Positions 3,408 to 19,400 of a stretch of 32,000 nt of DNA are shown here, piece after piece. Below the pieces are notes generated by a model, which worked only from the letters and a program-made list of their open reading frames with translations, did no database searches and was not told the origin of the DNA. This stretch comes from Nitratidesulfovibrio vulgaris str. Hildenborough. GTDB taxonomy: Bacteria; Desulfobacterota; Desulfovibrionia; Desulfovibrionales; Desulfovibrionaceae. The translations under genes were made by a program, and so were the position numbers. Within the stretch, counting starts at the first letter, position 1, and each line of letters opens with the position of its first letter. The stretch is from NCBI RefSeq assembly GCF_000195755.1, contig NC_002937.3, positions 2,580,001-2,612,000 of the forward strand. The letters run 5' to 3'.

Positions 3408-4250
3408 ATGCCCAATATCATTCTCAAGAAGGAACGCCTCATCCCCGGGCAGACCAGCAAACTGGTCATCGACGCCCCGCACATCGCGCGCAAGGCGAAG
3501 CCCGGCAACTTCGTCATCCTGCGCGTGTGCGAAAAGGGCGAACGCATTCCCCTTACCATAGCGGACGCCGACCCGGACGCGGGCACCATCACCATCGTCT
3601 ATCTCGTTCTCGGCAAATCGACAGCCATGCTTGAGACCCTCGGCGAAGGCGATGCCATCCTCGACCTGTGCGGTCCCCTCGGCAAGCCCACCCATATCGA
3701 ACGCTGCGGTACTGTCATCTGCGTGGGCGGGGGCACTGGCATCGCCGCCATGCATCACATCGCCAAGGGACACCATCTGGCGGGCAACCATGTCGTGGCC
3801 ATCATCGGTGCGCGCAACAAGGACCTGCTTCTCTTCCACGACGACCTCTCGGCATTCTGCCCCGAAGTGCTCGTCTCCACGGACGACGGCAGCTTCGGGC
3901 ACAAGGGGCTGGTGACCGACCTGCTGCGCCAGCGCCTCGAAAACGACCCCGGCGTGGCGGAGGTCGTGGCCGTGGGTCCCGTGCCCATGATGGCAGCCGT
4001 GTCCCGCACCACCGAACCCTTCGGCGTGAAGACCACGGTAAGTCTCAACTCCATCATGGTCGACGGCATCGGCATGTGCGGCGCATGTCGCGTGACTGTC
4101 GGCGGCGAGACGCGCTTCGCGTGCGTGGACGGGCCGGAATTCGACGGACACAAGGTGGATTTCGACGAATTACGCAAACGGCTTGGGGCGTTCCGTCCGC
4201 AAGAGAAGGAATCGTTCGACCATTTCTGCAGGTGTACGTGCCATGAATAG
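3408..4250 (+). CDS. FAD/NAD(P)-binding [2Fe-2S] small subunit of an NfnAB / SudAB-type (glutamate-synthase-beta-like) oxidoreductase
   Basis: 280 aa with GAGGAGGAAG upstream of the ATG. Contains the GGGTGIAAM dinucleotide-binding motif and the C-terminal MVDGIGMCGACRV...FACVDGPEF cysteine cluster typical of the PyrK/SudB family. Its stop overlaps the next gene's start by 8 nt. Confidence 0.8.
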   Translation: MPNIILKKERLIPGQTSKLVIDAPHIARKAKPGNFVILRVCEKGERIPLTIADADPDAGTITIVYLVLGKSTAMLETLGEGDAILDLCGPLGKPTHIERCGTVICVGGGTGIAAMHHIAKGHHLAGNHVVAIIGARNKDLLLFHDDLSAFCPEVLVSTDDGSFGHKGLVTDLLRQRLENDPGVAEVVAVGPVPMMAAVSRTTEPFGVKTTVSLNSIMVDGIGMCGACRVTVGGETRFACVDGPEFDGHKVDFDELRKRLGAFRPQEKESFDHFCRCTCHE

Positions 4251-5673
4251 TGACAAGAAGGGCAGAAGCCTGCAACCGCGAGTCCCCATGCCCTGCCAGC
4301 CCGCCCATGAGCGGGTGGGCAACTTCCACGAAGTGGCCCTTGGCTACTCGCGCGAGGACGCCATGCGCGAGGCCTCGCGCTGCCTGCAATGCAAGAAGCC
4401 CAAGTGCGTCAAGGGCTGCCCCGTCGAGGTGCAGATACCGCAATTCATCGCCGCCCTTGCCAAGGGCGATGTCGAGTCGGCCTACCGCACCCTGCGCGAG
4501 ACCAACAGCCTGCCCGCGGTCTGTGGCCGGGTCTGTCCACAGGAGAACCAGTGCGAAGGGGCCTGCATACTCGGGGCCAAGGGACAACCCGTGGCCATCG
4601 GTCGTCTCGAACGCTACGCCGCAGACACCTACATGGCCCTCGACGCCTGCGACCAGCTTACGGGCAGGCCCGAGTGCCCGCTCATCGACCCCGACCTCAA
4701 GGTCGCGTGCATCGGGTCCGGGCCCGCAAGCCTCACCGTGGCGGGCTACCTTTCGTCGCGCGGGTTCAAGGTGACCGTGTACGAGGCCCTGCACGAACTT
4801 GGCGGGGTGCTCGTCTACGGCATCCCCGAATTCAGGCTGCCCAAGTCCGACATCGTGGAGAAGGAGATTGCCGCCCTGCGCCAGCAGGAGGTGGAGTTCG
4901 TCACCAACTGGGTGGGCGGGCGCACCTTCTCCATCGACGACCTCTTCGCCGAAGGCTACAAGGCCGTGTTCATCGGGGTCGGGGCCGGGTTGCCCCGTTT
5001 TCTCGACATCCCCGGAGAGAACCTCGTCGGGGTGTTCTCGGCCAACGAATACCTGACGCGGGTCAACCTCGGGCGTGCCTACGGCTTCCCGGACTATGAC
5101 ACCCCCGTCTACAGGGGGCGCGAGGTCACCGTCTTCGGCGGAGGCAACGTGGCCATGGACGCGGCACGCACTGCCCTGCGCCTCGGCGCGGAGAGCGTTC
5201 GCATCGTCTACCGCCGTACCCGCGACGAGATGCCCGCCCGCCTCGAAGAACTTGAACATGCCGAGGAGGAAGGCGTTCGCCTCGAACTTCTGGCCGCACC
5301 GCTCGGCTTCAAGGGCGACGCGGACGGACGCCTCACCGCCGTGACCCTGCAACGCATGGAACTGGGCGAGCCCGACGCCTCGGGCAGACGCAGCCCCCGC
5401 CCTGTGGAGGGCGCGGTGTACGACCTGCCCACCGACCTTGCCGTCATCGCCGTGGGCACACGCCCCAACCCAATCCTGCTCGAAGCGACCCCCGGACTCA
5501 CGCTCGACCGCCGGGGCTACATCGCGGTGGACGAGGCCACGGGCATGACATCCATCCCCGGCGTGTACGCCGGTGGCGACATCGTGACGGGAGCCGCCAC
5601 GGTCATCCTCGCCATGGGTGCCGGTCGCAGGGCCGCCAAGGACATAGAAGCCCGACTGCGCCCTGCCACATAG
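4243..5673 (+). CDS. NADPH-dependent glutamate synthase beta-chain-like large subunit (NfnB / SudA type)
   Basis: The track ORF starts at 4183, but the ATG at 4243 overlaps the upstream stop (translational coupling) and gives the usual N-terminus. Motifs: CLQCKKPKCVKGCPV and CGRVCPQENQCEGAC Fe-S motifs, GSGPASL and GGGNVAMD nucleotide folds, and C-terminal GDIVTGAATVILAMGAGRRAA. Confidence 0.85.
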   Translation: MNSDKKGRSLQPRVPMPCQPAHERVGNFHEVALGYSREDAMREASRCLQCKKPKCVKGCPVEVQIPQFIAALAKGDVESAYRTLRETNSLPAVCGRVCPQENQCEGACILGAKGQPVAIGRLERYAADTYMALDACDQLTGRPECPLIDPDLKVACIGSGPASLTVAGYLSSRGFKVTVYEALHELGGVLVYGIPEFRLPKSDIVEKEIAALRQQEVEFVTNWVGGRTFSIDDLFAEGYKAVFIGVGAGLPRFLDIPGENLVGVFSANEYLTRVNLGRAYGFPDYDTPVYRGREVTVFGGGNVAMDAARTALRLGAESVRIVYRRTRDEMPARLEELEHAEEEGVRLELLAAPLGFKGDADGRLTAVTLQRMELGEPDASGRRSPRPVEGAVYDLPTDLAVIAVGTRPNPILLEATPGLTLDRRGYIAVDEATGMTSIPGVYAGGDIVTGAATVILAMGAGRRAAKDIEARLRPAT

Positions 5674-5718
5674 ACGGCGCCCTCCCCCTTCACGCGAGCC
5701 CCGCAGCATCGTATACTT

Positions 5719-5764
5719 GTCGCGCCTCACGCCACACCACTGCCAGAGTGGCGTGAGGCGCGGC
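5719..5764 (+). terminator. Strong GC-rich hairpin downstream of the nfnB-like gene (candidate terminator or insulator before pstS)
   Basis: 15 perfect bp (CGCGCCTCACGCCAC at 5721-5735 pairs with GTGGCGTGAGGCGCG at 5748-5762) plus 2 flanking pairs, with a 12-nt loop. It lies 46 nt after the stop at 5673. No U-tract follows, so the mechanism is uncertain. Confidence 0.4.
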
Positions 5765-5914
5765 GACACCAGACATGCCCCTCCACCTTCGCCGAAGCGC
5801 TTTCCACGTCACGAACATGTGCGACCGCCGCAACCGTTCCGTAACATGAGGGCCCTATTTTCCCCTCACGCGCCACGGCGCGCCCCAGTTCTGCAACATA
5901 ACCGGAGGAAGAAC

Positions 5915-6727
5915 ATGTCGATCAAGCGTTTCGCCCTCGTCGCCCTCATGACGCTTGGCCTTGCCGCCAACGCCTTCGCCGCCGACAAGATCGTGGTCAA
6001 GGGTTCGACCACCGTGCTCCCCATCATGCAGAAAGCTGCCGAAGCCTACATGAAGAAGACCCCCGGCGTGGAGATCGAAATCTCCGGTGGGGGTTCCGGC
6101 AACGGTATCAAGGCCCTCATCGACGGCACGCTGGACATCTGCATGTCCTCGCGCAAGATCAAGGACAAGGAAGTGGAAGCCGCCAAGGCCAACGGTCGCG
6201 AAGCCGTCGAGCACATCGTCGCCCTCGACGCCATCCTGCCCATCGTCAACAAGGGCAACCCCGTCGACAACCTGACCATCGACCAGCTTCGCGCCATCTA
6301 CGAAGGCAAGATCACCAACTGGAAGGAAGTGGGCGGCAAGGACGAAGCCATCGTGGTCATCTCCCGCGACACCTCCTCCGGCACCTACGAATCGTGGCAG
6401 CATTTCGTCATGAAGGACGCCAAGGTCTTCCCCGGCGCGCTGTTGCAGGCATCCTCCGGTGCCGTGCTTCAGGCCGTCTCCAAGAACTCCAAGGCCATCT
6501 CCTACGACGGCATCGGCTACGTGAACGACACCGTCAAGGCCACCAAGGTCAACGGCGTCACCGGTTCCGCCGCCACCGCCAAGGATGGTTCGTACGCCAT
6601 GGCCCGCGACCTGCAAATCTACACCCCCGGTCAGCCTCAGGGTGCGGTGAAGAACTTCATCGACTTCATGAAGTCGGCCGAAGGCCAGGCCCTCGTGCAG
6701 GAAGCCGGCTTCATCCCGACCAAGTAG
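5915..6727 (+). CDS. pstS: Phosphate ABC transporter substrate-binding protein PstS family
   Basis: The ATG at 5915 follows GGAGGA (5904-5909). Signal peptide MSIKRFALVALMTLGLAANAFA|AD. KGSTTVLP and GGGSGNG motifs of PBP-like_2 phosphate binders. The track ORF's 66-aa N-terminal extension starts at a TTG and looks non-coding. Confidence 0.85.
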   Translation: MSIKRFALVALMTLGLAANAFAADKIVVKGSTTVLPIMQKAAEAYMKKTPGVEIEISGGGSGNGIKALIDGTLDICMSSRKIKDKEVEAAKANGREAVEHIVALDAILPIVNKGNPVDNLTIDQLRAIYEGKITNWKEVGGKDEAIVVISRDTSSGTYESWQHFVMKDAKVFPGALLQASSGAVLQAVSKNSKAISYDGIGYVNDTVKATKVNGVTGSAATAKDGSYAMARDLQIYTPGQPQGAVKNFIDFMKSAEGQALVQEAGFIPTK

Positions 6728-6806
6728 CATCCCTGCCCCAGCCCATCCCTGCCCCCCGCGCCACTGGCGCGGGGGGCGCACCATCAGACAGGATACCGGT
6801 ACGCAA

Positions 6807-7700
6807 ATGGCCATGTCGCGACGCGCAAAAGACAACATGGTGCACGGCGCCTTCTGGACAGCCGCCGCCCTCTGCATCGTCACGCTGACGCTCATCATGG
6901 TCTTCCTCTTCATGGAAGGCTTTCCCATTTTCCAGCATGTGAGCCTTGCCGACTTCATCTTCGGCAAGCTGTGGTATCCCACATTCGACCCGCCGGAATT
7001 CGGCATCCTGCCCATGATAGTGGGGTCGCTGGTCGTGACCGCGCTTTCGTCGCTCATCGCCATCCCGCTTGGCATCATGACCGCCATCTACCTTGCCGAG
7101 TTGGCCGGCCCCCGGATGCGCGCCTACGTGAAGCCCCTCGTGGAGATGCTTCAGGCACTGCCTTCGGTGGTCATCGGCTTCTTCGGCATGGTCATCGTGG
7201 CCCCGTGGCTACAGGAGACCTTCGACATCGCCACAGGTCTCAACATCGCCAACGCATCCATCATGCTGGCGTTCATGGCCGTGCCCACCATCACCAGCAT
7301 CGCCGAAGACGCCATCTACAGCGTACCCAACGACATGCGCGAGGCCTCTCTCGCCCTCGGGGCCACCCACTGGCAGACCATAGGCCGCGTGGTCGTCCCT
7401 GCGGCACTGCCCGGCATCAGCACGGCGGTCATCCTCGGCATGGCGCGTTCCATCGGAGAGACCATGGTCGTTCTCATGGTGGCGGGCGGCGCAGCCATGC
7501 TGCCCGGTTCCATCTTCGACCCTTCACGGCCCATGCCCGCCTCCATCGCAGCAGAGATGGCCGAAGCCCCCTTCCGTAGCGACCATTACCACGCACTCTT
7601 CGCCACCGGCCTTGTGCTCTTCTTCTTCACTCTCGCCTTCAACGCACTGGCCGCATGGATTGCCGAAAAGAAGAAACAGGTGGGAACGGCAACGCTGTAA
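6807..7700 (+). CDS. pstC: Phosphate ABC transporter permease PstC
   Basis: 297 aa and polytopic. EAA-loop region EDAIYSVPNDMREASLALGATHWQTIGRVVVPAALPGI. Sits directly after pstS. The exact start (6807, 6813 or 6837) is uncertain because the SD is weak. Confidence 0.85.
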   Translation: MAMSRRAKDNMVHGAFWTAAALCIVTLTLIMVFLFMEGFPIFQHVSLADFIFGKLWYPTFDPPEFGILPMIVGSLVVTALSSLIAIPLGIMTAIYLAELAGPRMRAYVKPLVEMLQALPSVVIGFFGMVIVAPWLQETFDIATGLNIANASIMLAFMAVPTITSIAEDAIYSVPNDMREASLALGATHWQTIGRVVVPAALPGISTAVILGMARSIGETMVVLMVAGGAAMLPGSIFDPSRPMPASIAAEMAEAPFRSDHYHALFATGLVLFFFTLAFNALAAWIAEKKKQVGTATL

Positions 7701-7786
7701 CCGGCCGTTGCACCCTGTCGACAAGCATCACAACGCCGGAGCATCCGGCCCATGCGGCACTGCCGCACAAGCACGCAGGAGCGACA

Positions 7787-8716
7787 ATGCCCCGCACTGC
7801 CTTCGCCTCACAGCAGACGGCCACCCTCGGCAACATTGGCCACATGCCTCAGGATTCCGGCTATGTGAAACGCCGCAAGCCTCTGCAACGATTCATGTTC
7901 GGCCTGTTCCATGTCGCCGTGTTCATCAATGCGGCGGCCCTCGCCATCATCTGCGGCTTCGTCCTCTACCACGGTCTGCCCGCCATCAGTTGGGAGTTTC
8001 TCACCGCCTTTCCGCGTGACTCCATGACCAAGGGCGGCATCCTGCCGTGCATCCTCGGCACCATCGCCCTCAGCTACGGTTCAATGCTCATCGCCCTGCC
8101 ATGGGGAGTGGCCACAGCCATCTACCTGCAGGAGTACGCCCGCCCCGGCCCGCTGGTGCACGCCATACGTCTGACCATCAACAACCTGGCAGGGGTGCCT
8201 TCGGTCGTCTTCGGCCTGTTCGGACTCTCGATGTTCGTCACCGCCATGAAGATGGGAGTCAGCCTGCTGGCGGGCATGTTCACGCTGGCGGCACTGGTGC
8301 TGCCGCTCATCATCGGGGCATCCGAAGAGGCACTGCGCTCGGTCTCGCAGACCTACCGCGAAGCGTCACTGGGGCTTGGGGCCACCAAGTGGCAGACCAT
8401 CTCGCTGGTGGTGCTTCCCGCCGCGCTGCCCAGCATCCTCACCGGGGCCATCCTTGCCGTCGGTCGCGCCGCAGGTGAGACGGCAGCCATCATGTTCACG
8501 GCTGCCATGTTCTTCAGCCCCCGCCTGCCCGGTTCGCTGTTCGACAGTGTCATGGCCCTGCCCTACCACATCTATGTGCTGGCGACGGCAGGTACTGAAA
8601 TCGAACTGACGCGCCCCATGCAATTCGGCACCTCGCTGGTGCTCATCGTGCTGGTGCTGGGCATGAACCTCATGGCCATCATCATGCGGGCGCGACTCCA
8701 GCGCAGACTCCGCTGA
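7787..8716 (+). CDS. pstA: Phosphate ABC transporter permease PstA
   Basis: The ATG at 7787 follows AGGAG with a 5-nt spacer. EAA-loop EEALRSVSQTYREASLGLGATKWQTISLVVLPAALPSI. The track ORF start at 7655 overlaps the end of pstC and lacks an SD. Confidence 0.8.
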   Translation: MPRTAFASQQTATLGNIGHMPQDSGYVKRRKPLQRFMFGLFHVAVFINAAALAIICGFVLYHGLPAISWEFLTAFPRDSMTKGGILPCILGTIALSYGSMLIALPWGVATAIYLQEYARPGPLVHAIRLTINNLAGVPSVVFGLFGLSMFVTAMKMGVSLLAGMFTLAALVLPLIIGASEEALRSVSQTYREASLGLGATKWQTISLVVLPAALPSILTGAILAVGRAAGETAAIMFTAAMFFSPRLPGSLFDSVMALPYHIYVLATAGTEIELTRPMQFGTSLVLIVLVLGMNLMAIIMRARLQRRLR

Positions 8717-8831
8717 CGGGCCTCCCGAAGAGAATACCGGCCCCGGAGCACGTAGTACGTCGCACCTGAACCGCACCGGGCACCCTCTCGCCCTGCCCAC
8801 GCGCCATGGGCGGACACGCGACTCCCACGCG

Positions 8832-8879
8832 AATGACCGCAGCCTGAACCCCGTCTAGAGGGTTCAGGCTGCGGTCATT
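8832..8879 (+). terminator. Rho-independent-type terminator after pstA
   Basis: Perfect 20-bp inverted repeat: AATGACCGCAGCCTGAACCC at 8832-8851 pairs with GGGTTCAGGCTGCGGTCATT at 8860-8879. 8-nt loop, T-rich 3' edge (CATTTG). Confidence 0.6.
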
Positions 8880-9037
8880 TGCGGGCACTCCGAACCGTCG
8901 TATGGCCAGAGGGCCGACCTCCCGCCGCAAGGACGGCCCTTCGACTGTGGTGCACCATACCCTCACCAACCGCCTTTCAGACCACGGCAAAGCCGGACGG
9001 CTGAAGCCATGGGAACAGATTCCATTCCATACACGAA

Positions 9038-9075
9038 ACCCCGGAAGGTGATCGTCAGCGACAACCTTCCGGGGT
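9038..9075 (-). terminator. Hairpin downstream of the formate dehydrogenase beta gene (candidate operon terminator)
   Basis: 12-bp stem (9038-9049 pairs with 9064-9075) with a 14-nt loop, about 95 nt past the stop at 9171 on the minus strand. The trailing sequence TTCGTGT is only a weak U-tract. Confidence 0.3.
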
Positions 9076-9170
9076 GTTGCGTATCCAGTCGGCGCGGCCT
9101 GCCGGATGCTGCCCCCCATGCCATCGCCCAGTGCCGCAGCAGGCATACGGCGCGCTAGCAGGACGCGACG

Positions 9171-9884
9171 CTAGGCGAAAGGACGCAGGCGCAACAAGGC
9201 GCGACGGCTGAAGGGCCCGATGCGCGAGGTGTCGGCTTCCGCCACCATGTGCGAATGGTAGTTGGCGGGGGCGAGCTCGCACAGGTACAGGACCCGTACA
9301 AGGTCGGAGTCCGCCAGCAGGGCTGCGGGGCTCCTCTTCTTCACCTCGCCGAGGCGTTTCTGCGCCAGTTCAAGCATGTCGGCCCTGTCACCGAAGTGCA
9401 TGGTCCCCGTGGGGCAGGTCTTCACGCACGCGGGCAGCATGCCGTTCTGCACCCGGTCGATGCACATGTTGCATTTGGTGAGCAGACCCGTTGCCGGGTC
9501 TTGCCGCGGGATGTCGTAGGGGCACGCCGAGCGCACCTCCATGTAGTCCAGTCCCTTGGTCTTCTCGGTGTAGAGCACCGCCCCGGTCTCCGCATCCTGC
9601 ACGATGGCACCCGGAATGAGGGCATCCGCCACCATCTTGCACGGTGGTTCGAGACAGTGGCGGCATTGCTCCGGGAAGAACAGCCATTTCAGTTTGCCAT
9701 CCACCTCGACCTCGTTGAAGCGCACCAGCTTGAAGGTGCTCGGCCCGAGGTCGGGCGGATTCTGGTATGAGCCGGTGTTGCGCGTCTCGATGCTGCCGAA
9801 CTTCTTCCACTGCTTGCAGGCGGCCTGACAGCCCCGACAGGCCGTGCAACGCGTCTGGTCTATGAAGAACGTCTTGCCGTTCAT
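9171..9884 (-). CDS. fdhB: Formate dehydrogenase iron-sulfur (beta) subunit, 4x[4Fe-4S] ferredoxin type, no membrane anchor
   Basis: The ATG at 9884 follows GGGAGG with a 6-nt spacer, giving 237 aa. Cys clusters CTACRGCQAAC, CRHCLEPPC, CPYDIP and CNMCIDRV...CVKTCP. The track ORF's 51-aa N-terminal extension is not supported. Confidence 0.85.
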   Translation of the reverse strand: MNGKTFFIDQTRCTACRGCQAACKQWKKFGSIETRNTGSYQNPPDLGPSTFKLVRFNEVEVDGKLKWLFFPEQCRHCLEPPCKMVADALIPGAIVQDAETGAVLYTEKTKGLDYMEVRSACPYDIPRQDPATGLLTKCNMCIDRVQNGMLPACVKTCPTGTMHFGDRADMLELAQKRLGEVKKRSPAALLADSDLVRVLYLCELAPANYHSHMVAEADTSRIGPFSRRALLRLRPFA

Positions 9885-10063
9885 GTATGCCTCCCTGATG
9901 TGACGCCTCGACACTCTCCGCATTCCCTGCGGGAGGCTGCCGAGGGGGCGCACGCCGGAGACATCGTCTCCGGCGCGACCGCTCCACTTCTTGCCGCGTA
10001 CACCGCCCCCGCAAGGGGTCGGTATCGCGCCATGCATGCATCAAGTCTTCTGATGGCGCGCCA

Positions 10064-13000
10064 CTAGGCCTTGCGCAGGTTGACCATGAAGACCTTGGTC
10101 TCGGGAATGCCAGTGTTGGGGTCGCCCACCGAAGGCGAGAGCAGGTTGGCAGAGTCGCCCTTGCCCACATGCTGCCCCCAGCCGAACTGCCACGGTATGC
10201 CCACCTCGTGCATGACCTCGCCCATGACCTTGAAGGGCTTGAGACGTGGCGTGACGATGGCGACCACCTGCACCTTGCCCCGCAGCGATTCGAGCACCAC
10301 GGCGTCGCCGTTGGCGATGCCGAGTTCCTTGGCCAGTTCGCGGCTTATCTCGCAGAAGCCCTCCGGCTGCATCTCCTTGAGCCACCCGGTGTTGCGGGTC
10401 ATCGTGCCCGACTGCCACTGTTCGGTGACGCGGTAGGTAGTGCAGATGAAGGGGTAGCGCTTGTCGCGCACCGCCTTGGGTTCGTGGCTGAACGCCAGCG
10501 CAGTGGGGTTGACCCGCTGCTTCGAGAAGGGATGGCTTTCGAGAGGACTCTCGAACGGTTCGTAGTGCTCCGGGAAAGGCCCGTCGACCCTGCCGGGGCC
10601 GAACAACTGACCGCGCCCCTCGCGTATCATGATGAAGGGCAACTTCTCTCCGGGCTTCCAGCCGCCGTCAGGCACGTCGCCCACCCACTTCTCGCCGTTC
10701 CATGCGATGACGGCACGCTTGGGGTCGAAGGGCTTGCCGGTCATGTCCACCGCCGCACGGTTGTACAGGATGCGACGGTTGGCGGGCCATGCATACGACC
10801 AGTTGGGGAACAGCCCTATGGCGGCCTGTTCCGGGGTCTGCGTACGGTCTCGGCGCGCCATCATGTTACCGGCGTCGGTATAGCACCCGGTGAATATCCA
10901 ACACCCGGACGTCGTCGAACCGTCGGCCTGCAACATGGCGAAGCCGGGTACCTGCTGCCCCGCCTTGTAGGTCTTGTCGCCTATGGTCACGTCCGTGAGG
11001 AACTTGCCGTTCAGCGTCTTCGCCACCTTGTGGTGATCGTACTTGCCGTCGGTACGGTAGTCGGTGTCCAGCGCCAGCACGGGTTCGGGGAAGGCTCCCT
11101 TCTCCTCGCGGTAGAGTTTGCGTATCTCGTCATAGAGGTCGAGGACGATGTCACCGTCCGAACGGCTGTCGCCCATGGGTTTCGGCCCCGGTTCACGCCA
11201 TTGCAGCCAGCGACCGGAATTGGCGATGGAACCGCCCTTCTCGACGCTCATGCACGCAGGCAGGAAGAACACCTCGGTCTTGACCTTGGCGGGGTCTACC
11301 CCCGGCCCCTTCCAGAAGAGCGAACTTTCGTTCTCGAAGAGGTTGACCACCACCATCCAGTCCAGCGTCTCCATAGCCTTGCGGTTCTTGCCCGCGTTGG
11401 CCCCGCCCGCACAGGGGTTCTGCCCCCACACGAAGGCACCCTTGAAGCCGCCCTTGCTCATGCGCTCGAATATCTGCAACCACGAGTAGTCGGTTATCTT
11501 CCCGTCATCGACCTTGGGGTGCCAGAGGTAGCCGTCCTGATGGCTGGCCGTGGGATACACCGACTTCATGTACGAGGCGAGATACTTGCCGCGGTTCGAC
11601 CACCAGTTGGCGCTCTTCGGGTCCTTGTCCACCGGCGTCGTGCCCTTCACATAGTCGTCGAAGGTGGCCCACGAGGCCTTGGGGGTGGGCAGGTAGCCGG
11701 AGAGGTTGTCGCACAGCAGCGAGATGTCGGTGGTGCCCTGCACGTTGGATTCGCCGCGCAGCGCGTTGACCCCGCCCCCTGCGATGCCGATGTTGCCCAG
11801 CAGCAGCTGTATCATCGAAAGCGCACGGATGTTCTGTACGCCCACGGTGTGCTGGCACTGCCCCATGGCATAGAGGATGGTTCCCGCCCTGTCGGGCTTG
11901 CCCGTCGAGGCGAAGGTACTCCACAGCGTCGCCAGCTGCTCTTCGGAGATGCCCGTCACGTCGGAGACGGTCTTCCTGTCATAGCGGGCGTAGTGGGCCT
12001 TCATGAGTTGAAAGACGCAGCGCGGGTCGTTCAGCGTGGGGTCTTTCAGGGTCATGCCGTTCTCGTCGGCGGCGAAGGCCCATTTCTTGGTGTTGTAGGT
12101 TCCCTTCTCGGCGTCGAAGCCGGTGAAAAGACCATCGGCGAAACCGTAGTCCGCACCGACGATATACGAGGCGTTGGTGTAGTCGACCACGTACTGCCTG
12201 AAGAACAGGTCGTTCTCCATGATGTACCGGATGAGACCGCCGAAGAAGGCGATGTCCGTGCCCGACCTGATGTGGGCGTGGATGTCGGCCTTGGCGGATG
12301 TGCGCGTGAAGCGCGGGTCCACATGGATGAGCGTTGCACCGCGTTCCTGCGCGCGCGTCACCCACTTGAAGGATATGGGATGGTTCTCGGCGGCGTTACT
12401 CCCCATGATGAGAATGACGTCGCTGTTCTTGAGGTCGATCCAGTGATTCGTCATCGCACCGCGTCCGTAGGACTCTGCCAGAGCCCCCACAGTCGAGCTG
12501 TGTCAGATACGTGCGTGACTCTCGATGTACACGAGGCCGAGCGCGCGCATCATGGCTTGCATGAGCCAGCCCTCCTCGTTGTCGACGGCGGCCGAGCCCA
12601 CCGAGGCTATGCCCCGGGTGCGGTTGACGGTCTGCCCCTTGTCATTGGTGAGTTCGAAGGTGGCGTCGCGCGTCTCCTTGATCTTGCGGGCGATGCGCGG
12701 CAGGGCCCAGTCCCACGACTTCTCCTCCCACGCCGCGGCACCGGGTGCACGGTACAGCACCTTGGTGACACGCTTGCTGCGTTCGGTGGTCTGCCAGATG
12801 GACGCACCCTTGGGGCACAGCGTCCCTTCGTTGGTGGGATGGTCGGGGTCGCCCTCGATGTTGATGGAGCGTCCGGTCTGGGTGTCGGTGTAGACCAGCA
12901 ACCCGCATCCCACCGCACAGAAGCAGCAGACAGAGGGTGTGACCTTCGCCTTGGCGATCTTGAGTTCCGCAGCCCGCGCCACCGTGGGCGCGAGGCTCTG

Positions 13001-13075
13001 CCCCAGCCCGGCGAAGGCGAGAGCGCCTGCGGAAGCCGAAGCGAGCTTGATGAACGTTCTGCGAGGCATTCGCAT
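10064..13075 (-). CDS. fdhA: Periplasmic formate dehydrogenase catalytic (alpha) subunit, selenocysteine-containing, Tat-exported
   Basis: Two track ORFs (12503-13168 and 10064-12490) are in the same frame and are joined by the TGA at 12503-12505, read as ..IESHARI-U-HSSTVGALAE.. (the Sec-His active-site context of Mo/W formate dehydrogenases). Twin-arginine signal MRMPRRTFIKLASASAGALAFAG. CCFCAVGCGL...CPKG Fe-S motif. SD GAGGGGAG lies before the ATG at 13075. 1003 codons in total. Confidence 0.9.
12469..12505 (-). other. In-frame UGA (Sec) codon with candidate SECIS structure
   Basis: mRNA reads UGA CACAG-CUCGA-CUGUG (5-bp hairpin at 12488-12502) followed by GGGCUCU-GGC-AGAGUCC (7-bp stem with one G.U pair, 12469-12485). 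The G-containing apical loop sits about 25 nt after the UGA, inside the distance range usual for bacterial SECIS elements. Confidence 0.55.
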
Positions 13076-13091
13076 GATGTGTCTCCCCTCT

Positions 13092-14837
13092 CTACTGATT
13101 GTTGCCCGGAGTGTGACAGTCGCGACAGCCGACGGGACCGGCGGCCTTGCCCTTTTCACGCAGCGCAAGGTGGCATGTCATGCACCCGCGTTCCTTGCCA
13201 TGGAAGGCGTTGCGGAAGTAGCCCACTTCGCCCAGACCCTCGATGGTGTCGGGACGGGGCCTGTCATGGCAGCCCTTGGTGGCGCAGGTCTGCTTGCCCT
13301 CCTGATAGCCCTTGTGGTGACAGGTTCCGCAATCCATCGAACCGTGGGTGTCATGAGGGAAGAGCACGGCGGGCTTGGTGAGTACCGTACCTGCGGGCAG
13401 GGTGATGGGAATGGTCTTGCGGATGACCACGGGATGGTGCGCCGAAGCCTCCATGGGCAATGGCTCACGGTGGCAGACGCTGCAGTTGTTGCCGCCGCCC
13501 ATGACCTTGGCGTGCTGCTGGTACTGGATGGGCGGCATGTTATCGAGGTCGCGGCCGAAGGGATTCTCGGCGGGATATTCGGCGTGTGCCGCACCGTGGC
13601 ATGTCGGACAACGCAGGTTGCCCATGTCGTCGGCGCGGGCCGAGAAGCGGTCCTTCTCCGAAGCCGTCCACTTGTTGAATGCCGATGCCGTGGCCGTGGC
13701 AGGCTTCTGGGCGAAATCATGGCAGCCGGTGCAGTCGGGTTCCATGGCCCACGGCGCACGCGGGTTGATGTCATCGACCGCGGACACGGCGCGGGGCTTG
13801 AGTTCCCTTGCGAGACGTGCCGCACTCTTGCGTCCAGCCTTCTCCTCCCAGCGCAGCAGGGAGAGGGCGTGGTCTTCCATGGCACCATGGCAACGCGTGC
13901 AGTCCAGTGCCTTGGCCTTGTGCAGCCCGCGCATGAAGCGCGTGGCGCCTTGCGGCGAAGAAGGATGGCAGCTTGCACATGTCTCGGCGCCGCCGTCGGT
14001 CATGTAGTTGGCATGCCAGCCGTGCAGGGCCGCCGAAAGGCTGGGGGCCGGGGCCTCGGGTGCCCCGCTGTGGCACGAACGGCACTCCACAGGGGCCTTG
14101 GCAGCCTGCGCGACGAGGTCGGTACCGTTGATGCGGTCATGGACGGTGAGCACGTCATCGGCCGTCGCCGGGGAGATTCCGGCCAGCCCGTCGCGCTTCC
14201 AGGCGCCGCCATGACAGTTGCGACACCCCACCTCCGTGGAGACGGGCAACACGGCGGCGGTACGGGCAAGAAGCCTGCCTTCGTCGTCGTGGGCCTCAAC
14301 GGTGACCGTCGGGTAGGCATTGAACCCGCCGGAAGCGCGATAGGGCATGATGCCGATGCCGTCGGCGGCGAACGTGCTGCCCCCCTGCTCCAGTTTCATC
14401 TCGCCTGCTGCACCGGAGACGGGTGCACCTTCAAGGGTGGCGTGTTCGCGTTCGACACGCCACGTGATGCGTACGCCCTCTGTCACCGGCGCGGGGCCGG
14501 GCCCGCGGCGCACGAGTTGCGCCCGCAATGCCGCCTCGGGGGGCAGCATCGTCCACCGGGGTTCGGCGTCCGTCACCATCTGCATACCCTGCGTACTCCA
14601 CGCCAGCAGTATGTAGTCGGCCCTGTCCGCATCGAAGGGCGGTATCGACGTGACGGGCATATACGGAGACGGGGCCGCTGCCGATGCCGCTGGGGCCTTG
14701 GCCGCAGGCGTCTCGCCCGTCGTCCGTGCCGGGCGCTCCAGCCCGCCCGCGGCGAAGATGCCGAGCAGGGCGACGACGGCGACAAGCCATGCGAAATAGT
14801 AGAAGGCGGTGAGTCTTGGCGACTGCTTGGATGGCAT
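13092..14837 (-). CDS. Membrane-anchored multiheme cytochrome c (11 heme sites) with a C-terminal cytochrome c3-like tetraheme domain
   Basis: 581 aa with SD GAGGAG 7 nt before the ATG. N-terminal hydrophobic helix LTAFYYFAWLVAVVALLGIFAAGG. Ten CxxCH motifs (CRNCH, CRSCH, CASCH, CTRCH, CTGCH, CPTCH, CSVCH, CGTCH, CMTCH, CRDCH) plus one CxxxxCH (CATKGCH). The last four sites sit within about 90 aa, as in class III cytochrome c3. The stop is 16 nt before the fdhA start. Confidence 0.85.
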   Translation of the reverse strand: MPSKQSPRLTAFYYFAWLVAVVALLGIFAAGGLERPARTTGETPAAKAPAASAAAPSPYMPVTSIPPFDADRADYILLAWSTQGMQMVTDAEPRWTMLPPEAALRAQLVRRGPGPAPVTEGVRITWRVEREHATLEGAPVSGAAGEMKLEQGGSTFAADGIGIMPYRASGGFNAYPTVTVEAHDDEGRLLARTAAVLPVSTEVGCRNCHGGAWKRDGLAGISPATADDVLTVHDRINGTDLVAQAAKAPVECRSCHSGAPEAPAPSLSAALHGWHANYMTDGGAETCASCHPSSPQGATRFMRGLHKAKALDCTRCHGAMEDHALSLLRWEEKAGRKSAARLARELKPRAVSAVDDINPRAPWAMEPDCTGCHDFAQKPATATASAFNKWTASEKDRFSARADDMGNLRCPTCHGAAHAEYPAENPFGRDLDNMPPIQYQQHAKVMGGGNNCSVCHREPLPMEASAHHPVVIRKTIPITLPAGTVLTKPAVLFPHDTHGSMDCGTCHHKGYQEGKQTCATKGCHDRPRPDTIEGLGEVGYFRNAFHGKERGCMTCHLALREKGKAAGPVGCRDCHTPGNNQ

Positions 14838-14863
14838 GAATCTACTCCTCTTTCATGCGGGGG

Positions 14864-16156
14864 CTAATGACGCCGTGCGTCGCGCTCGTTGACGAGGTAG
14901 GTGGCGAGGGCCCTCCGTTCTGCGGGGGTTCCCACGAACGGCGGCATGTAGCCCTGTAACGCTCCCTGCCCGGTGATCAACGCCTCGACCCCGGTGAGTG
15001 GCCTGTTCGCGATGCGGGGCAGGATGTCGATCATGGGGGCTCCGAGGCCGTGGCAGTTGGCGCACTGCACCTGCCACAGTTCGCGTCCTGCCTCATGCAT
15101 GTTCGCTTCGGCAACCTGCTTGACGCCAGACCACCGCGCGACCTTCAGCATCCCTTCGAGGTCGGACTTGGCACCGGCTTCGGGCGTGATGCCGTTGGAC
15201 CAGATGACACCGTGGACAATCCACGGGCGTCTGCCCGTCTCGCGCACCCACTCGAAGGTTCCGACCTGACACAGGCCGAGCACCAGCAGCAGCGCAGCCA
15301 CAGGCACGCGCGCCCCGGAGGGAAGCCGCGTGAAGAAGGCCAGCCCGCCCACCATGAGGGCAGCCAGTACCCACGGGAAGGCTTCGAGGAAGGGCCGGAT
15401 GTCGGCGGTTCGCCGCAGCACCATCTCGAGTTGCGGTGCAGGCAGCGCCCCGAGGTACCACCATGCGCCAACGGCCATGAAGGGAATGGGGACGAGTGCC
15501 CACAGCCGCGTCACGCCCGTCATGAGTTCCCGTGCGCGCTCGTCGTCGATGAGCGAGGCCCACACAAGGCCGAACAGCCCCGAGAGCATGGCGCACAGGG
15601 CACTGCGGAAGAGCAGCGAGGGCCAGAAGGTGGGATTGAAGAAGCCGTCCCAGAAGCCCTGCGTCTGCATCCACGCACCGGGTGTGAGCATGAAGGTGAT
15701 GATGCCGTTGATCATGAACAGCGAGAGATACGCGAACAGGCCGTACAAGAGCCCCACATTGCGGTGGTCTTCGAAGCGCATCTTCCCGAAACCGTAGTAG
15801 TAGACGAGTAACGCCACTATCTCGCCGAGGAAGAACACCCATTCGGTGGCCCAGGCATAGACGAAACGATGCACCAGCAGGCTCGTGGCTGCCGGACTGA
15901 TGAGCGAGATGATGACCCAGATGCCCACGCCGGATACACCGCCGAACACCATGCTGAGCAGCAGGAAGAAACGGGTGAACCGTTTCACCCAGAACGTGGC
16001 TTCCGCCGACCCCGCGCGTTCTGCGCGCGTGGCGGCATGGACGAGCAGGAAACCGCCCCCCACTGCGAACTGGGCGACGAACACATGCAGAACGGAGATG
16101 ATGGCCACAAGCAGGCCACCGTTGATCCCCCAGAGTTGCCATACGGGATAGTCCAT
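14864..16156 (-). CDS. Polytopic membrane protein with cytochrome bd subunit I (CydA)-like motifs fused to a C-terminal monoheme cytochrome c domain
   Basis: 430 aa with about 8-9 hydrophobic helices. SVLHVFVAQFAVGGG in helix 1, FWVKRF, ATEWVFFLGE and PGAWMQTQ resemble the CydA blocks MYHFLFVP, KFWGKLF, AIEGLMAFFLE and NGWMQNP (recalled from memory). The C-terminal ~90 aa carry CANCHG and YMPPF (heme c plus candidate Met ligand). The start is 3 nt after the upstream stop. Confidence 0.8.
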   Translation of the reverse strand: MDYPVWQLWGINGGLLVAIISVLHVFVAQFAVGGGFLLVHAATRAERAGSAEATFWVKRFTRFFLLLSMVFGGVSGVGIWVIISLISPAATSLLVHRFVYAWATEWVFFLGEIVALLVYYYGFGKMRFEDHRNVGLLYGLFAYLSLFMINGIITFMLTPGAWMQTQGFWDGFFNPTFWPSLLFRSALCAMLSGLFGLVWASLIDDERARELMTGVTRLWALVPIPFMAVGAWWYLGALPAPQLEMVLRRTADIRPFLEAFPWVLAALMVGGLAFFTRLPSGARVPVAALLLVLGLCQVGTFEWVRETGRRPWIVHGVIWSNGITPEAGAKSDLEGMLKVARWSGVKQVAEANMHEAGRELWQVQCANCHGLGAPMIDILPRIANRPLTGVEALITGQGALQGYMPPFVGTPAERRALATYLVNERDARRH

Positions 16157-16159
16157 GTG

Positions 16160-17224
16160 CTAGGCCCCCTTTCGACTGCTGCGCATGAGGCGGAGCATCC
16201 AGATGATGGCGGCGACACCGCAGACCGCAGACGCGAGAAAAAGCACCAGCGGTGAGGTTTCGACGAAGTTCACGGGTTGGGGTTGCGCCCATGGGGCAAG
16301 ATACCCCTCACGCAATGAGGCGCGCATCACCGCCATGACGGTGACCGTGCCGACGGCTGCCCCCACGGCGAGGGCCACGCTACGCGCGCGGGCCGCCAGC
16401 AGGGCAAGGGCCGTTCCGATCAGACCGAGGATGAAGGCCGCAGTCGCGAGAGTGTCCCCCCCCATGAAGCGCAGCATCAGGTCGCGGGGCAATGCCATGA
16501 GGAACCAGATGCCCAGGGCTATCTGCGCATACGTGGCATGGCTGAACCAGCGCAGCCCCGTCTCGATGCCCTCCGCCGCGTCAGGTGCCCCCCACGAGGC
16601 GCGTCGCACATGGAAGAGCGAAAGCGCCAGACCGCCGATGGCGATGGATCCCACGAGCATGTGCAGCCAGCGCGGTATCAGTGTCGGGTCGCCGAGGTTC
16701 AAAAGCGCGCCGTCACGCCGCTCGAACCATGCCAGCCAGCGTTCCGGCTGGAGCATGAGCGTCATGTTGTTGCTGAAGACGAACGACGTGGCCACCAGAA
16801 GCAGGAGCGCCAGAACGATGACGGCGATGCGCCGCGTGCCCAGTTCGTCGTGATTGATGGCGAAGATGTACAGGCCGTAGTAGGCGAGCATCACCAGACC
16901 GACGATGCCGAGCCACCAGAGCGCCATGATGACGGAACTCGTGTAGAAGAAGTTGCCATAGAGCACCTGCACGAAGAGCAGTGGCGGCACGCCGAGGTTG
17001 ATGGCAAGCGCCAGTGCAGTGGGCAGGCGGGTGGCGAAGTCGCGCACCGGCCCCTGTTCGGACGCAGGTTTGCGCAACGCGTGCACCGCCACGATGACCG
17101 TGCCGCCAAGAACCGTGTTCATGAGCAGCAGATGCAGGACGAAGGTCAGCAGAAGCAGGATTTCGAACCACCACGCCGGGCCGGGCATGGCGTCAGCCAA
17201 CGGGATGAGAGAGGCGGGTTCCAT
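16160..17224 (-). CDS. Polytopic membrane protein, paralog of the N-terminal part of the downstream CydA-like protein
   Basis: 354 aa with about 9 helices. SD GAGGA 6 nt before the ATG at 17224. Helix 1 FVLHLLLMNTVLGGTVIVAVHA aligns with SVLHVFVAQFAVGGGFLLVHA of the next gene. Further shared blocks: N..T.ML.P..W and PT..P. Confidence 0.75.
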   Translation of the reverse strand: MEPASLIPLADAMPGPAWWFEILLLLTFVLHLLLMNTVLGGTVIVAVHALRKPASEQGPVRDFATRLPTALALAINLGVPPLLFVQVLYGNFFYTSSVIMALWWLGIVGLVMLAYYGLYIFAINHDELGTRRIAVIVLALLLLVATSFVFSNNMTLMLQPERWLAWFERRDGALLNLGDPTLIPRWLHMLVGSIAIGGLALSLFHVRRASWGAPDAAEGIETGLRWFSHATYAQIALGIWFLMALPRDLMLRFMGGDTLATAAFILGLIGTALALLAARARSVALAVGAAVGTVTVMAVMRASLREGYLAPWAQPQPVNFVETSPLVLFLASAVCGVAAIIWMLRLMRSSRKGA

Positions 17225-17277
17225 GGTGCGTCCTCGCAGGAAATACGGAAGGGGAAGGCATTAACCGATACTTGTTA

Positions 17278-17306
17278 TTTCTAGCCTAGAATAATCCCCG
17301 TGGCAA
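17278..17306 (-). promoter_or_regulatory. Candidate sigma70-type promoter of the formate dehydrogenase operon
   Basis: On the minus strand: TTGCCA (17306-17301), 17-nt spacer, TAGAAA (17283-17278). This would give a ~45-50 nt leader before the ATG at 17224. It overlaps an AT-rich near-palindrome. Prediction from sequence only. Confidence 0.3.
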
Positions 17307-17618
17307 CGCGAGGTGCGAAAAGAATCAACGGCACACCGCGTGTCCCAGTGGTGGCTTGCAATGCGCGCTCACGTGCAGGCTTCGCGGTGTCTACCGGCGA
17401 GCCTATCACGGCACGGTGCCATCGCCGCCACAGGGGGTACGAGGGAGAATGAAGGAGGAAGGGACGCAGACGGACAGAGTGCCCCCGCACAAGGGAACAC
17501 GGGAAAAACGTCGGGCGAGGGAGGGGCAGACAGCCGACATGTGCGCAGCGGTGCCGTACCCGGGCGACGCAACCCACTGCCGCAGGGGAAGGGGGCAGCC
17601 GCAGACAGGTCGTCGAGG

Positions 17619-18212: not shown

Positions 18213-19400
18213 TCAGTCTTCGCTGGAGGTATCGCCAAGGTCGAGCACGTGTCTGCCCAGGACATAGTGCATGAGACGGGGGCGCTGGGCCGATTCCTCC
18301 AGCGCGGCGATGATACGCTGGATGCGACGCGATGAACGCAGCACGCCGTCGATGTACTCGGTGAGCATGAGCGTATCGAGGCGGGTGAGTTTCTCCTGCA
18401 ACCTGTCGGCATGGGCGCGGGCAGGGGCGTCTTCGGGCAGCAGGTCACGCAGGGCCTGCATCTCCGTCGTGGCGTCCTCCCACTCGTCGTGCATGTCGTC
18501 GAGGAGTTCGGCGCAGAGTTCACCGTAGTTGCGCAGGATGGCGAGGGCGTTGTTGCCGTGGTGAGCGACGGCACCTGCCGCCTTTTCCAGCGCGTCACGG
18601 GCCACGGCGAGGCGACGCCCCGTGGTGAGGGCCACGATGCGGGCGCACTTCGCGAGAAAACGTGCGTCGTAGCCGTCGAACCCGCCCTCCTGTTCGGAAT
18701 ACAGGAGCACGAGCCCGAAGGGGGCCTTGTCCTTGCGCTCGCGCAGCACGAAGGCAAGCCGTGAGCGACACCCTGCCTTGTAGGCCATGCAGTCGAACGA
18801 CTCGCCACCACGGTCCATGCCGCGCAGGTCGTTGGAGACGACGTGTCGCGTCCCGTCGCAGACTGCACGCATGACAGGATGCCCGGCAAGCCCCTCCTCG
18901 AGGATGGGCGAGAAGATGGGTACGGCGCCGCCATCGGGCCTGTCGGAGGCCACAACCCGCCAGTCTCCGTCCGCATCGCGCAGGCGGCACACGAAGAGGT
19001 CTGCCCCGAAAAAGCGGACGAGGGTCTGGGCACTCTGCCGCAACGCCTCTTCGGGCGGCACCATCTCCTCAGCGACGCCAAGCAGTTCGTTGGTGACGCG
19101 AATGAGCGGTTCCATATCATGACGCATGGCCGCCACGTCGCCCAGAAGCCCCAGAAGGTCGCGCCAGCCCTGTACGGGGCCCTTGCCCGCATTGGGGCGG
19201 TGCCCGCGCTTCATGGCCGTATGGACGGGAGGCAACAGGGCTATGATGGCCCTGCGAACATCTTCAGGAGCGCTCTCAAGCCAAAGCACGAATGCGTCGT
19301 GGAGCATCGTCCCGTCAGGACGGCATTCCGCACCGGTTCTGGACGAGGTTTTCACTCTGAAGGCTTCGTGTAAGGACAAGCATGCATCGTCAGCAGACAT
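18213..19400 (-). CDS. GAF-domain protein with a histidine-kinase-like H-box (DHp) but no recognisable ATPase domain
   Basis: 395-aa ORF; alternative start ATG at 19307. The central region FGADLFVCRLRDADGDWRVVAS...GHPVMRAVCDG...RSRLAFVLRERKDKAPFGLVLLYSEQEGGFDGYDARFLAKCARIVA follows the GAF pattern. AAGAVAHHGNNALAILRNYGEL (His codon at 18561-18563) resembles the GxAHxxNNxLxxIxGxxEL H-box. Only 116 aa follow, with no N/G1/G2 boxes. Confidence 0.65.
   Translation of the reverse strand: MSADDACLSLHEAFRVKTSSRTGAECRPDGTMLHDAFVLWLESAPEDVRRAIIALLPPVHTAMKRGHRPNAGKGPVQGWRDLLGLLGDVAAMRHDMEPLIRVTNELLGVAEEMVPPEEALRQSAQTLVRFFGADLFVCRLRDADGDWRVVASDRPDGGAVPIFSPILEEGLAGHPVMRAVCDGTRHVVSNDLRGMDRGGESFDCMAYKAGCRSRLAFVLRERKDKAPFGLVLLYSEQEGGFDGYDARFLAKCARIVALTTGRRLAVARDALEKAAGAVAHHGNNALAILRNYGELCAELLDDMHDEWEDATTEMQALRDLLPEDAPARAHADRLQEKLTRLDTLMLTEYIDGVLRSSRRIQRIIAALEESAQRPRLMHYVLGRHVLDLGDTSSED

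Follow-up and report, generated by a model that had tools for sequence, protein, structure and literature searches.

Our analysis concerns a five-gene cluster of Desulfovibrio (Nitratidesulfovibrio) vulgaris Hildenborough, which lies within a 32,000-nt stretch of contig NC_002937.3 (positions 2,580,001 to 2,612,000; hereafter the window) and in which genes for a selenocysteine formate dehydrogenase (FDH) pair, FdhAB, are preceded by genes for an eleven-heme cytochrome and two membrane proteins. The locus is the fdh2/FdhM operon (cfdCDEAB, DVU2485–2481), which is already catalogued and is no new system. We demonstrate its parts list and the homologies of the parts, and establish that the two membrane proteins, DVU2485 and DVU2484, are a paired OR-C1b and OR-C1a of the cytochrome bd superfamily (C1b and C1a below), the latter conserving the active-site and proton-channel residues of CydA and having lost its quinol site. 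We suggest, with the evidence about evenly poised for and against, that the products form a quinone-independent formate:O2 oxidoreductase, in which electrons would pass from FdhAB through a cytochrome c3 domain and a heme wire within the multiheme cytochrome (MHC, DVU2483) to a bd-like O2 reductase.

Two lines of published work meet at this locus. Graham et al. purified DVU2482/2481 (FDH2) as an O2-insensitive tungsten/selenocysteine (W/Sec) enzyme with four [4Fe-4S] clusters, which has a preference for high-potential acceptors and, in air, reduces cytochrome c; FDH2 also has formate oxidase activity, making H2O2 from O2 in air. The same authors took the ‘eleven-heme cytochrome c (uhc)’ encoded next to it to be its likely partner and predicted a role in aerobic respiration, noting also of the biological function that it ‘remains to be elucidated’; cytochrome bd goes unmentioned in their paper. 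A proteomics paper describes an ‘FdhM complex’ CfdB/A/E/D, with DVU2481–2484 all detected in lactate/sulfate cells, and elsewhere in the literature DVU2484 is labelled ‘cytochrome c’ or ‘a cytochrome c oxidase’ and DVU2485 an unidentified membrane protein. On the other side, Murali, Gennis and Hemp (bioRxiv 10.1101/2021.01.16.426971) described the OR-C family of the cytochrome bd superfamily, in which the quinol site is absent, subunit I carries heme c and an adjacent paralogue, OR-C1b, is present, and their supplementary table enters DVU2484 as OR-C1a with one heme c. The term ‘formate dehydrogenase’ is absent from the main text of that preprint, and in its supplements ‘formate’ is confined to an unrelated table that lists growth conditions of archaea. 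In those parts of the two bodies of work that were available, neither cites the other. Joining FDH2 enzymology, with its O2-insensitive enzyme in want of a partner, to OR-C phylogenomics, we add the FDH2/OR-C link itself, the assignment of DVU2485 as OR-C1b, fusion evidence concerning the DVU2483 core, and the co-occurrence of the c3 domain with FDH.

The membrane pair, its cytochrome and FdhAB

Direct comparison of the 581-aa, 430-aa and 354-aa products with AAS96955.1, AAS96956.1 and AAS96957.1 (DVU2483, DVU2484 and DVU2485) gave 0 differences, the same records (AAS96955.1/Q728W9, AAS96956.1/Q728W8 and AAS96957.1) were found within the 90%-identity clusters of the accessory proteins, and the computed masses of 47.7, 61.9 and 110.8 kDa equal the values tabulated for DVU2484, DVU2483 and DVU2482. 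From the zero-difference comparison and the matching masses it follows that the locus is DVU2481–2485, the residue-level comparison being that of the three accessory proteins, and FdhA matching DVU2482 in mass (110.8 kDa). All five genes are read in one direction on the minus strand (9171–17224), with junctions of 3 nt (C1b/C1a), 26 nt (C1a/MHC) and 16 nt (MHC/FdhA), precisely as a preliminary description of the window, made from the sequence alone, had reported; position 17306, with which it bounded the cluster, is no gene start, as an in-frame stop lies upstream of ATG 17224. The literature treats the five genes as one operon (Graham et al.), and DVU2485–2481 have been deleted as a unit. The general idea of the preliminary description, that periplasmic FdhAB is wired through hemes to a bd-like module perhaps reducing O2, is supported by the anatomy of the cluster, but the novelty that it implied is lost, given the known fdh2/FdhM operon. 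It had also left open whether the cluster was already characterised: FdhAB has been purified, the operon deleted and an aerobic role predicted, whereas for the membrane module no such publication was found.

C1a belongs to the cytochrome bd superfamily as OR-C1a. It comprises 8 transmembrane (TM) helices and a C-terminal mono-heme c domain (CANCH, aa 365–369, nt 15050–15064), and its residues H24, V77, W80, E105, E112, Y119, Y121, H131, S145 and F183 reproduce the published OR-C1a reference row position for position. A profile of 23 homologues matches CydA of G. thermodenitrificans (5doq_A, E 1e-7), with H24, E105 and E112 aligned to H21, E101 and E108 of that chain and F183 aligned to the heme b558 ligand H186. 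Among 121 homologues H24, E112, H131, S145 and the CxxCH motif are invariant and E105 is replaced once, by D, while the position of F183 is occupied by F, Y, L or S; the quinol/b558 site is missing, with neither an H186 nor an M393 equivalent and no Q-loop. Pfam yielded a sub-threshold match to Cyt_bd_oxida_I and a match to Cytochrome_CBB3 at aa 355–421, and NCBIfam had no match for C1a. The AlphaFold2 (AF2) model (pLDDT 86.6) shows eight long helices and, after them, a small helical domain, and the top 20 Foldseek matches to it are all bd oxidase chains. The bd-oxidase-like character that the preliminary description had seen in both membrane proteins is thereby confirmed for C1a; the NrfD/PsrC-type subunit that it had also entertained is contradicted, there being no NrfD match in Pfam or NCBIfam and the best non-bd structural match to C1a, ActC of alternative complex III (ACIII), following 20 bd chains at TMq 0.36. 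The heme c domain is placed in the periplasm, because the 8 TM helices follow a CydA-like N-out start, and M404, invariant in the 121 homologues, is a candidate axial ligand of its heme. H315 was considered as a stand-in for the heme ligand E445 and rejected, since the position varies (N/H/Y) among homologues. From the conserved residues we infer that C1a may be an O2 reductase.

For C1b neither Pfam nor NCBIfam gave a match, and a PDB sequence search with its profile returned noise only. Its profile nevertheless aligns with that of C1a (hhalign probability 86%, E 4.7e-6), with H31 falling on H24, and the top 12 Foldseek matches to its AF2 model (pLDDT 81.8; 9 helices suggested, against the published 8) are all CydA or CydB chains of cytochrome bd (TMq 0.48–0.62). 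Because of this match to C1a and these fold matches, C1b is a bd-fold paralogue of OR-C1a, hence OR-C1b, and the two are a heterodimer-type pair of bd-superfamily membrane proteins. The proton-channel glutamates are missing from C1b, where W103 and L110 stand opposite E105 and E112 of C1a. On the other hand, H31, H188, M297, R185 and R301 are kept in 121/121 homologues; H188 aligns, by way of C1a F183, to the CydA b558 ligand H186, and H31 aligns to H19. Since H31, H188 and M297 are invariant and H188 aligns to a b558 ligand, C1b, in contrast to CydB, probably binds heme.

The preliminary description had listed, beside two polytopic membrane proteins, a membrane-anchored 11-heme cytochrome of 581 aa, and the heme count is confirmed: MHC has ten CxxCH motifs and one CxxxxCH, and a single hydrophobic segment (anchor or signal) at aa 7–37 (nt 14727–14819). 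A seven-heme core (~aa 60–475, ~nt 13413–14660; seventh motif at aa 452–456) is followed by a tetraheme c3 domain, recognized by PF02085 (Cytochrom_CIII, aa 486–575, E 9e-20) and by cytochrome c3 1w7o in the PDB (E 2.9e-11), whose four heme sites (CGTCH 503, CATKGCH 518, CMTCH 552 and CRDCH 571) fall within ~90 residues. The earlier remark that no small c3 gene adjoins fdhAB thus holds for a stand-alone gene but overlooked a c3 module fused to the C-terminus of MHC. We propose that this domain is the docking or entry point for electrons from FdhB.

Among species-representative genomes a scan found 564 C1a relatives; the counts of loci given here refer to the best 80 of these 564, and individual loci are cited by L numbers. 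A heptaheme domain homologous to DVU2483 ~aa 60–475 is fused to C1a in 67 of the 80, giving proteins of ~880 aa with 8 CxxCH, which explains the ‘8 heme’ OR-C1a proteins of Murali et al. Since it is covalently fused to C1a in most genomes (Rosetta-stone evidence), the seven-heme core is predicted to be a subunit of the OR-C1 module. In 72/80 loci the C1b gene immediately precedes C1a, and the two are paired in 76/80. In L073, L074, L077 and L082 (Geobacter/Trichlorobacter) a 585-aa C1a with three CxxCH is followed by C1b, and there is no heptaheme domain.

In the same set fdhAB follows in four loci, and OR-C1 occurs without FDH in 76. It is exactly in these four FDH-linked loci, the window, L089 and L090 that the cytochrome is a separate 11-heme gene with a c3 domain, and across the genome survey the c3 domain is present only where fdhAB follows; it appears to be an FDH-specific adaptor of MHC. 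In a neighbour-joining (NJ) tree of the membrane domain the FDH-linked C1a proteins share one clade, which also takes in two split, seven-heme loci without FDH, and FDH linkage within OR-C1 is, to judge from these data, the property of a small Desulfovibrionaceae clade. At least seven loci of this clade, with C1a identities of 46–86%, retain the order of the five genes, among them relatives at 86%, 71%, 59%, 50% and 46%. In the survey of gene neighbourhoods, which the preliminary description had suggested, the five-gene cluster recurs in the Desulfovibrionaceae clade, and linkage to FDH is found in only 4/80 OR-C1 loci. No conserved neighbours were found for the OR-C1 trio where it lacks FDH, and the trio is widespread in strict anaerobes.

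FdhA has the three Pfam domains Molybdop_Fe4S4, Molybdopterin and Molydop_binding, a twin-arginine motif (RRTFIK) within a twin-arginine translocation (Tat) signal at aa 1–35 (nt 12971–13075), and, where the metal ligand is encoded, an in-frame UGA with a hairpin behind it, the features of a periplasmic Sec FdhAB that carries Mo or W on bis-pyranopterin guanine dinucleotide (bis-PGD). By its Tat signal the FdhAB pair is assigned to the periplasm. The TGA stands at the same position and in the same context (SHARI*HSSTV) in L001, L013, L033 and L058, with Cys in its place in L087 and L088, and across four orthologous loci the TGA and the next 60 nt hardly differ. The stability of the candidate selenocysteine insertion sequence (SECIS) hairpin is not significant against shuffled sequences (z-score -1.1); its sequence is almost invariant in the four orthologues. 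FdhB (Fer4_11 in Pfam, E 1e-39; FDH-beta in NCBIfam, E 2e-47), to which the literature assigns three clusters, has neither signal peptide nor TM helix. The pair is thus a soluble, Tat-exported Sec enzyme, as had been described beforehand. Of the FdnGHI type we found neither a hydrophobic segment in FdhB nor an FdnI gene in the cluster or its flanks, and the earlier statement that an FdnI-type cytochrome b gene is lacking was correct.

The true start of FdhB is most likely ATG 9884, which follows a GGGAGG Shine–Dalgarno sequence and gives 237 aa, within the range of its orthologues (237–250 aa; 237 aa in the 86%-identical relative L089). The database mass of DVU2481, 29.2 kDa, fits GTG 9953; because the Shine–Dalgarno-backed ATG 9884 gives 26.4 and not 29.2 kDa, the annotation probably sets the start too far upstream. 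The fdhA–fdhB spacer of 179 nt that results is particular to this lineage: a perfect 10-bp hairpin within it (9953–9975) is absent from relatives, and the gap elsewhere is 11 nt (L089) or 7 nt (16685–16691 in L001).

Proposed electron path and alternative readings

We suggest that periplasmic formate would be oxidized by FdhA, and that electrons would leave through the iron-sulfur clusters of FdhA and FdhB to the c3 domain, travel along the seven-heme core of MHC, and reach, by way of the C1a heme c, b/d-type hemes in the conserved four-helix core (H24, E105). At these hemes O2 would be reduced to water, with cytoplasmic protons supplied along the conserved E112/E105/S145/H131 path, and the formate:O2 complex could serve in O2 detoxification at the membrane. 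Turnover should be electrogenic, because the protons of formate would be released outside and those of water drawn from inside. A role with O2 is supported by the traits of FDH2, by a D. vulgaris Hildenborough double mutant without both known membrane oxidases (cox/bd), which behaves like the wild type at 0.02% O2 and for which its authors invoke ‘other mechanisms, still unknown’, and by the occurrence of OR-C1a in microaerophiles and aerobes as well, such as Hydrogenobacter, Thermocrinis and Chitinophaga (bioRxiv 10.1101/2021.01.16.426971).

A more far-reaching proposal, to which we give a little less than even credence, is that DVU2483–2485 and FdhAB are a missed third membrane O2 reductase of D. 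vulgaris, a quinone-independent, electrogenic formate:O2 supercomplex with hemes in both membrane subunits, where C1b would have a b558-like site at His188 and Met297 and a further one at His31. If this is true, it would explain why micro-oxic conditions do not harm the cox/bd double mutant and would provide a first function for the whole OR-C family (>500 genomes in GTDB), to which a biochemical role could then for the first time be assigned directly, in a genetically tractable anaerobe; it would also bear on the survival of strict anaerobes in O2 and on formate use at oxic–anoxic interfaces such as the gut.

Several points weigh against a formate:O2 oxidoreductase. C1a has no heme b558 ligands, and its internal electron path must therefore differ from that of CydA. 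Domains of the c3 type are usually of low potential and are compatible with any downstream acceptor. At L087 (7001–12535) and L088 (7001–12522) three genes encode an 11-heme, c3-bearing cytochrome whose signal peptide looks cleavable, a Cys-type FdhA (HARICHSSTV, no TGA) and FdhB; bd-like genes do not adjoin these clusters, and the 11-heme cytochrome can thus serve an FDH with no OR-C1 beside it. According to the literature FdhM is weakly expressed, and its proteins are found in anaerobic lactate/sulfate cells, where an O2-specific system is not obviously needed. Finally, a literature search found no report of purification, assay or biochemistry for any member of OR-C.

A rival reading has another oxidant (such as H2O2, NO or nitrite) in place of O2, or a membrane pair that mainly anchors FdhAB while the 11-heme cytochrome feeds the periplasmic cytochrome pool. 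The production of H2O2 by FDH2 in air, the MHC–FdhAB clusters without adjacent bd-like genes (L087, L088), the presence of the proteins in anaerobically grown cells and the wide distribution of the OR-C1 trio among strict anaerobes all speak for this explanation, which we nonetheless consider rather unlikely. Canonical bd oxidases are likewise common in strict anaerobes; the strict conservation of the CydA-type H19/E99/E107 set, together with a heme c entry site, suggests a catalytic site and not an anchor; and the heptaheme core, being fused to C1a in most lineages, argues for electron flow into the membrane subunit.

It is improbable, in our judgement, that the bd-like pair is a quinone module, that is, part of a formate:menaquinone oxidoreductase feeding the quinone pool in a Qrc-like role with the bd fold reversed, although the preliminary description had put forward a quinone reductase as one option. 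In Desulfovibrio it is normally by way of membrane complexes that periplasmic dehydrogenases are connected to the menaquinone pool, which favours such a module, as does the classical binding of quinol by bd-superfamily proteins; the weak Cyt_bd_oxida_I match in Pfam, taken alone, leaves the substrate unspecified. In C1a, however, F183 replaces the b558 ligand H186 and both an M393 equivalent and the Q-loop are missing, while the O2-site and proton-channel residues are kept in 120–121 of 121 homologues. Moreover, OR-C is defined by its missing quinol site (bioRxiv 10.1101/2021.01.16.426971), and the preference of FDH2 for high-potential acceptors is one that a menaquinone reductase would not need. 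That fdhAB and the three genes upstream are neighbours by chance and functionally unrelated is hardly credible: OR-C1 stands without FDH in 76 of the 80 surveyed loci and the cluster contains a 179-nt spacer with a hairpin, but the five-gene order persists across at least seven loci of the clade down to 46% C1a identity (from 86%), in the genome survey the gain of the c3 domain coincides exactly with the presence of FDH, and the junctions are very short in what the literature treats as one operon.

Operon boundaries and flanking genes

The positions of the features are collected in the table.

Table. Features of the fdh2/FdhM operon in the window (window coordinates, nt)
Feature	Position	Strand	Description	Basis
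Upstream region	17225..17618	-	Non-coding, with a promoter-like block	Sequence and alignment of window, L089, L090 and L086
C1b, DVU2485 (cfdC)	16160..17224	-	bd-fold membrane subunit, 354 aa, 8–9 TM, no CxxCH	Identity, hhalign, Foldseek
C1a, DVU2484 (cfdD)	14864..16156	-	OR-C1a, CydA-like subunit, 430 aa	Identity, residues, profile, fold
MHC, DVU2483 (cfdE/‘uhc’)	13092..14837	-	11-heme cytochrome c, 581 aa	Identity, heme motifs
c3 domain of MHC	13107..13382	-	C-terminal tetraheme cytochrome c3 (class III), aa 486–577	Pfam, PDB
FdhA, DVU2482 (fdnG-2/cfdA)	10064..13075	-	Tat-exported bis-PGD selenoprotein, catalytic subunit, 1003 codons	Pfam, RRTFIK, mass
Selenocysteine codon 191 of fdhA	12503..12505	-	In-frame TGA	Context HARI*HSSTV
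Candidate SECIS	12457..12500	-	Candidate bacterial hairpin directly 3' of the TGA	Fold -19.2 kcal/mol
fdhA–fdhB spacer	9885..10063	-	179 nt, lineage-specific	Start analysis, hairpin
FdhB, DVU2481 (cfdB)	9171..9884	-	Soluble iron-sulfur subunit, 4Fe-4S dicluster domain	Fer4_11 and FDH-beta

Upstream of the operon lies a gene for a GNAT acetyltransferase and then a 394-nt non-coding stretch. Within the latter a block at 17306–17278 (-) comprises TTGCCA (17306–17301), a 17-nt spacer and TAGAAA (17283–17278), with an embedded CTAGGCTAG box, and is kept in relatives with 99%, 86% and 71% C1a identity (alignment of the window, L089, L090 and L086). We infer only that the block may be promoter- or operator-like; a sigma-70 consensus scan called no promoter, this block included. 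A terminator-like hairpin at 17313–17296 is probably no terminator, as it overlaps the conserved -35-like element, and the three terminator-like hits of a consensus scan are fewer than expected by chance. An Rfam scan of the whole window at gathering thresholds gave no match, so neither a riboswitch for the molybdenum or tungsten cofactor (Moco/Wco) nor another known RNA was found, and ARAGORN detected no tRNA.

Further upstream, at 18213–19400 (-), a 395-aa protein with a weak GAF_2 match only and the motif AHHGNNALAIL is encoded; in L089 and L090, the two closest relatives, it is more strongly conserved than the bd-like genes. A dedicated regulatory role for it was rejected, the gene being kept in the closest relatives only and not found beside the FDH-linked L004, L013, L033 and L058, in a search database that lacked L089 and L090.

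On the other side, pstS-pstC-pstA of a phosphate ATP-binding cassette (ABC) transporter (5717–8716, +) converges on the fdhB end, an arrangement that agrees with the gene order of D. vulgaris Hildenborough; the window also has a gene for a glutamate-synthase-like NAD(P) oxidoreductase at 4183–5673 (+). Import of tungstate or molybdate by the adjoining transporter was considered and rejected, the transporter being PstSCA. Likewise discarded were an open reading frame (ORF) at 8682–9146 (-) as a sixth operon gene, which is spurious (no family match, and an overlap with the end of the convergent pstA), and the plus-strand ORFs 10169–13381 (1070 aa) and 12939–14867 (642 aa) opposite fdhA and the cytochrome gene, which are antisense artefacts of coding DNA with 65% G+C.

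Comparison with known systems

With FdhM/FDH2 of D. vulgaris Hildenborough the locus is identical, no sequence-level difference being seen in the three accessory proteins or the masses; what departs from the FdhM literature is that both DVU2484 and DVU2485 are here assigned to the bd superfamily. The membrane pair has the hallmarks of the OR-C1a/OR-C1b family, namely ~8 TM helices, equivalents of H19, E99 and E107, loss of the quinol/b558 site, a C-terminal heme c, and a ‘b’ paralogue without the glutamates. Whereas most OR-C1 members have the heptaheme domain fused to C1a, with 8 hemes in all, here it is encoded by a separate gene, extended by a c3 domain and followed by fdhAB.

Canonical CydAB (E. 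coli bd-I; G. thermodenitrificans 5doq) shares the fold of both subunits, and the active-site His and the two channel glutamates can be aligned. In contrast to CydA, C1a has no Q-loop and no H186 or M393, and electrons would enter via a covalent heme c instead of quinol; unlike the heme-free CydB, C1b has invariant His31, His188 and Met297. Among formate dehydrogenases, FdhABC3 (DVU2809–2812) is similar in that a periplasmic Sec FdhAB has a dedicated tetraheme c3 module as its first acceptor, but its c3 is a free 16-kDa subunit feeding the soluble cytochrome pool, whereas here c3 is a domain of a membrane-associated 11-heme protein encoded together with a bd-like module. The E. coli enzymes Fdh-N and Fdh-O (FdnGHI/FdoGHI) likewise tie a periplasm-facing Sec FDH to a membrane module, and Fdh-O resembles FDH2 in its association with aerobic conditions and high-potential dyes. 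In E. coli, however, FdnH is equipped with a TM helix, and menaquinone is reduced by FdnI, a di-heme cytochrome b, while in D. vulgaris FdhB is soluble, FdnI is missing and the partner in the membrane is of the bd superfamily.

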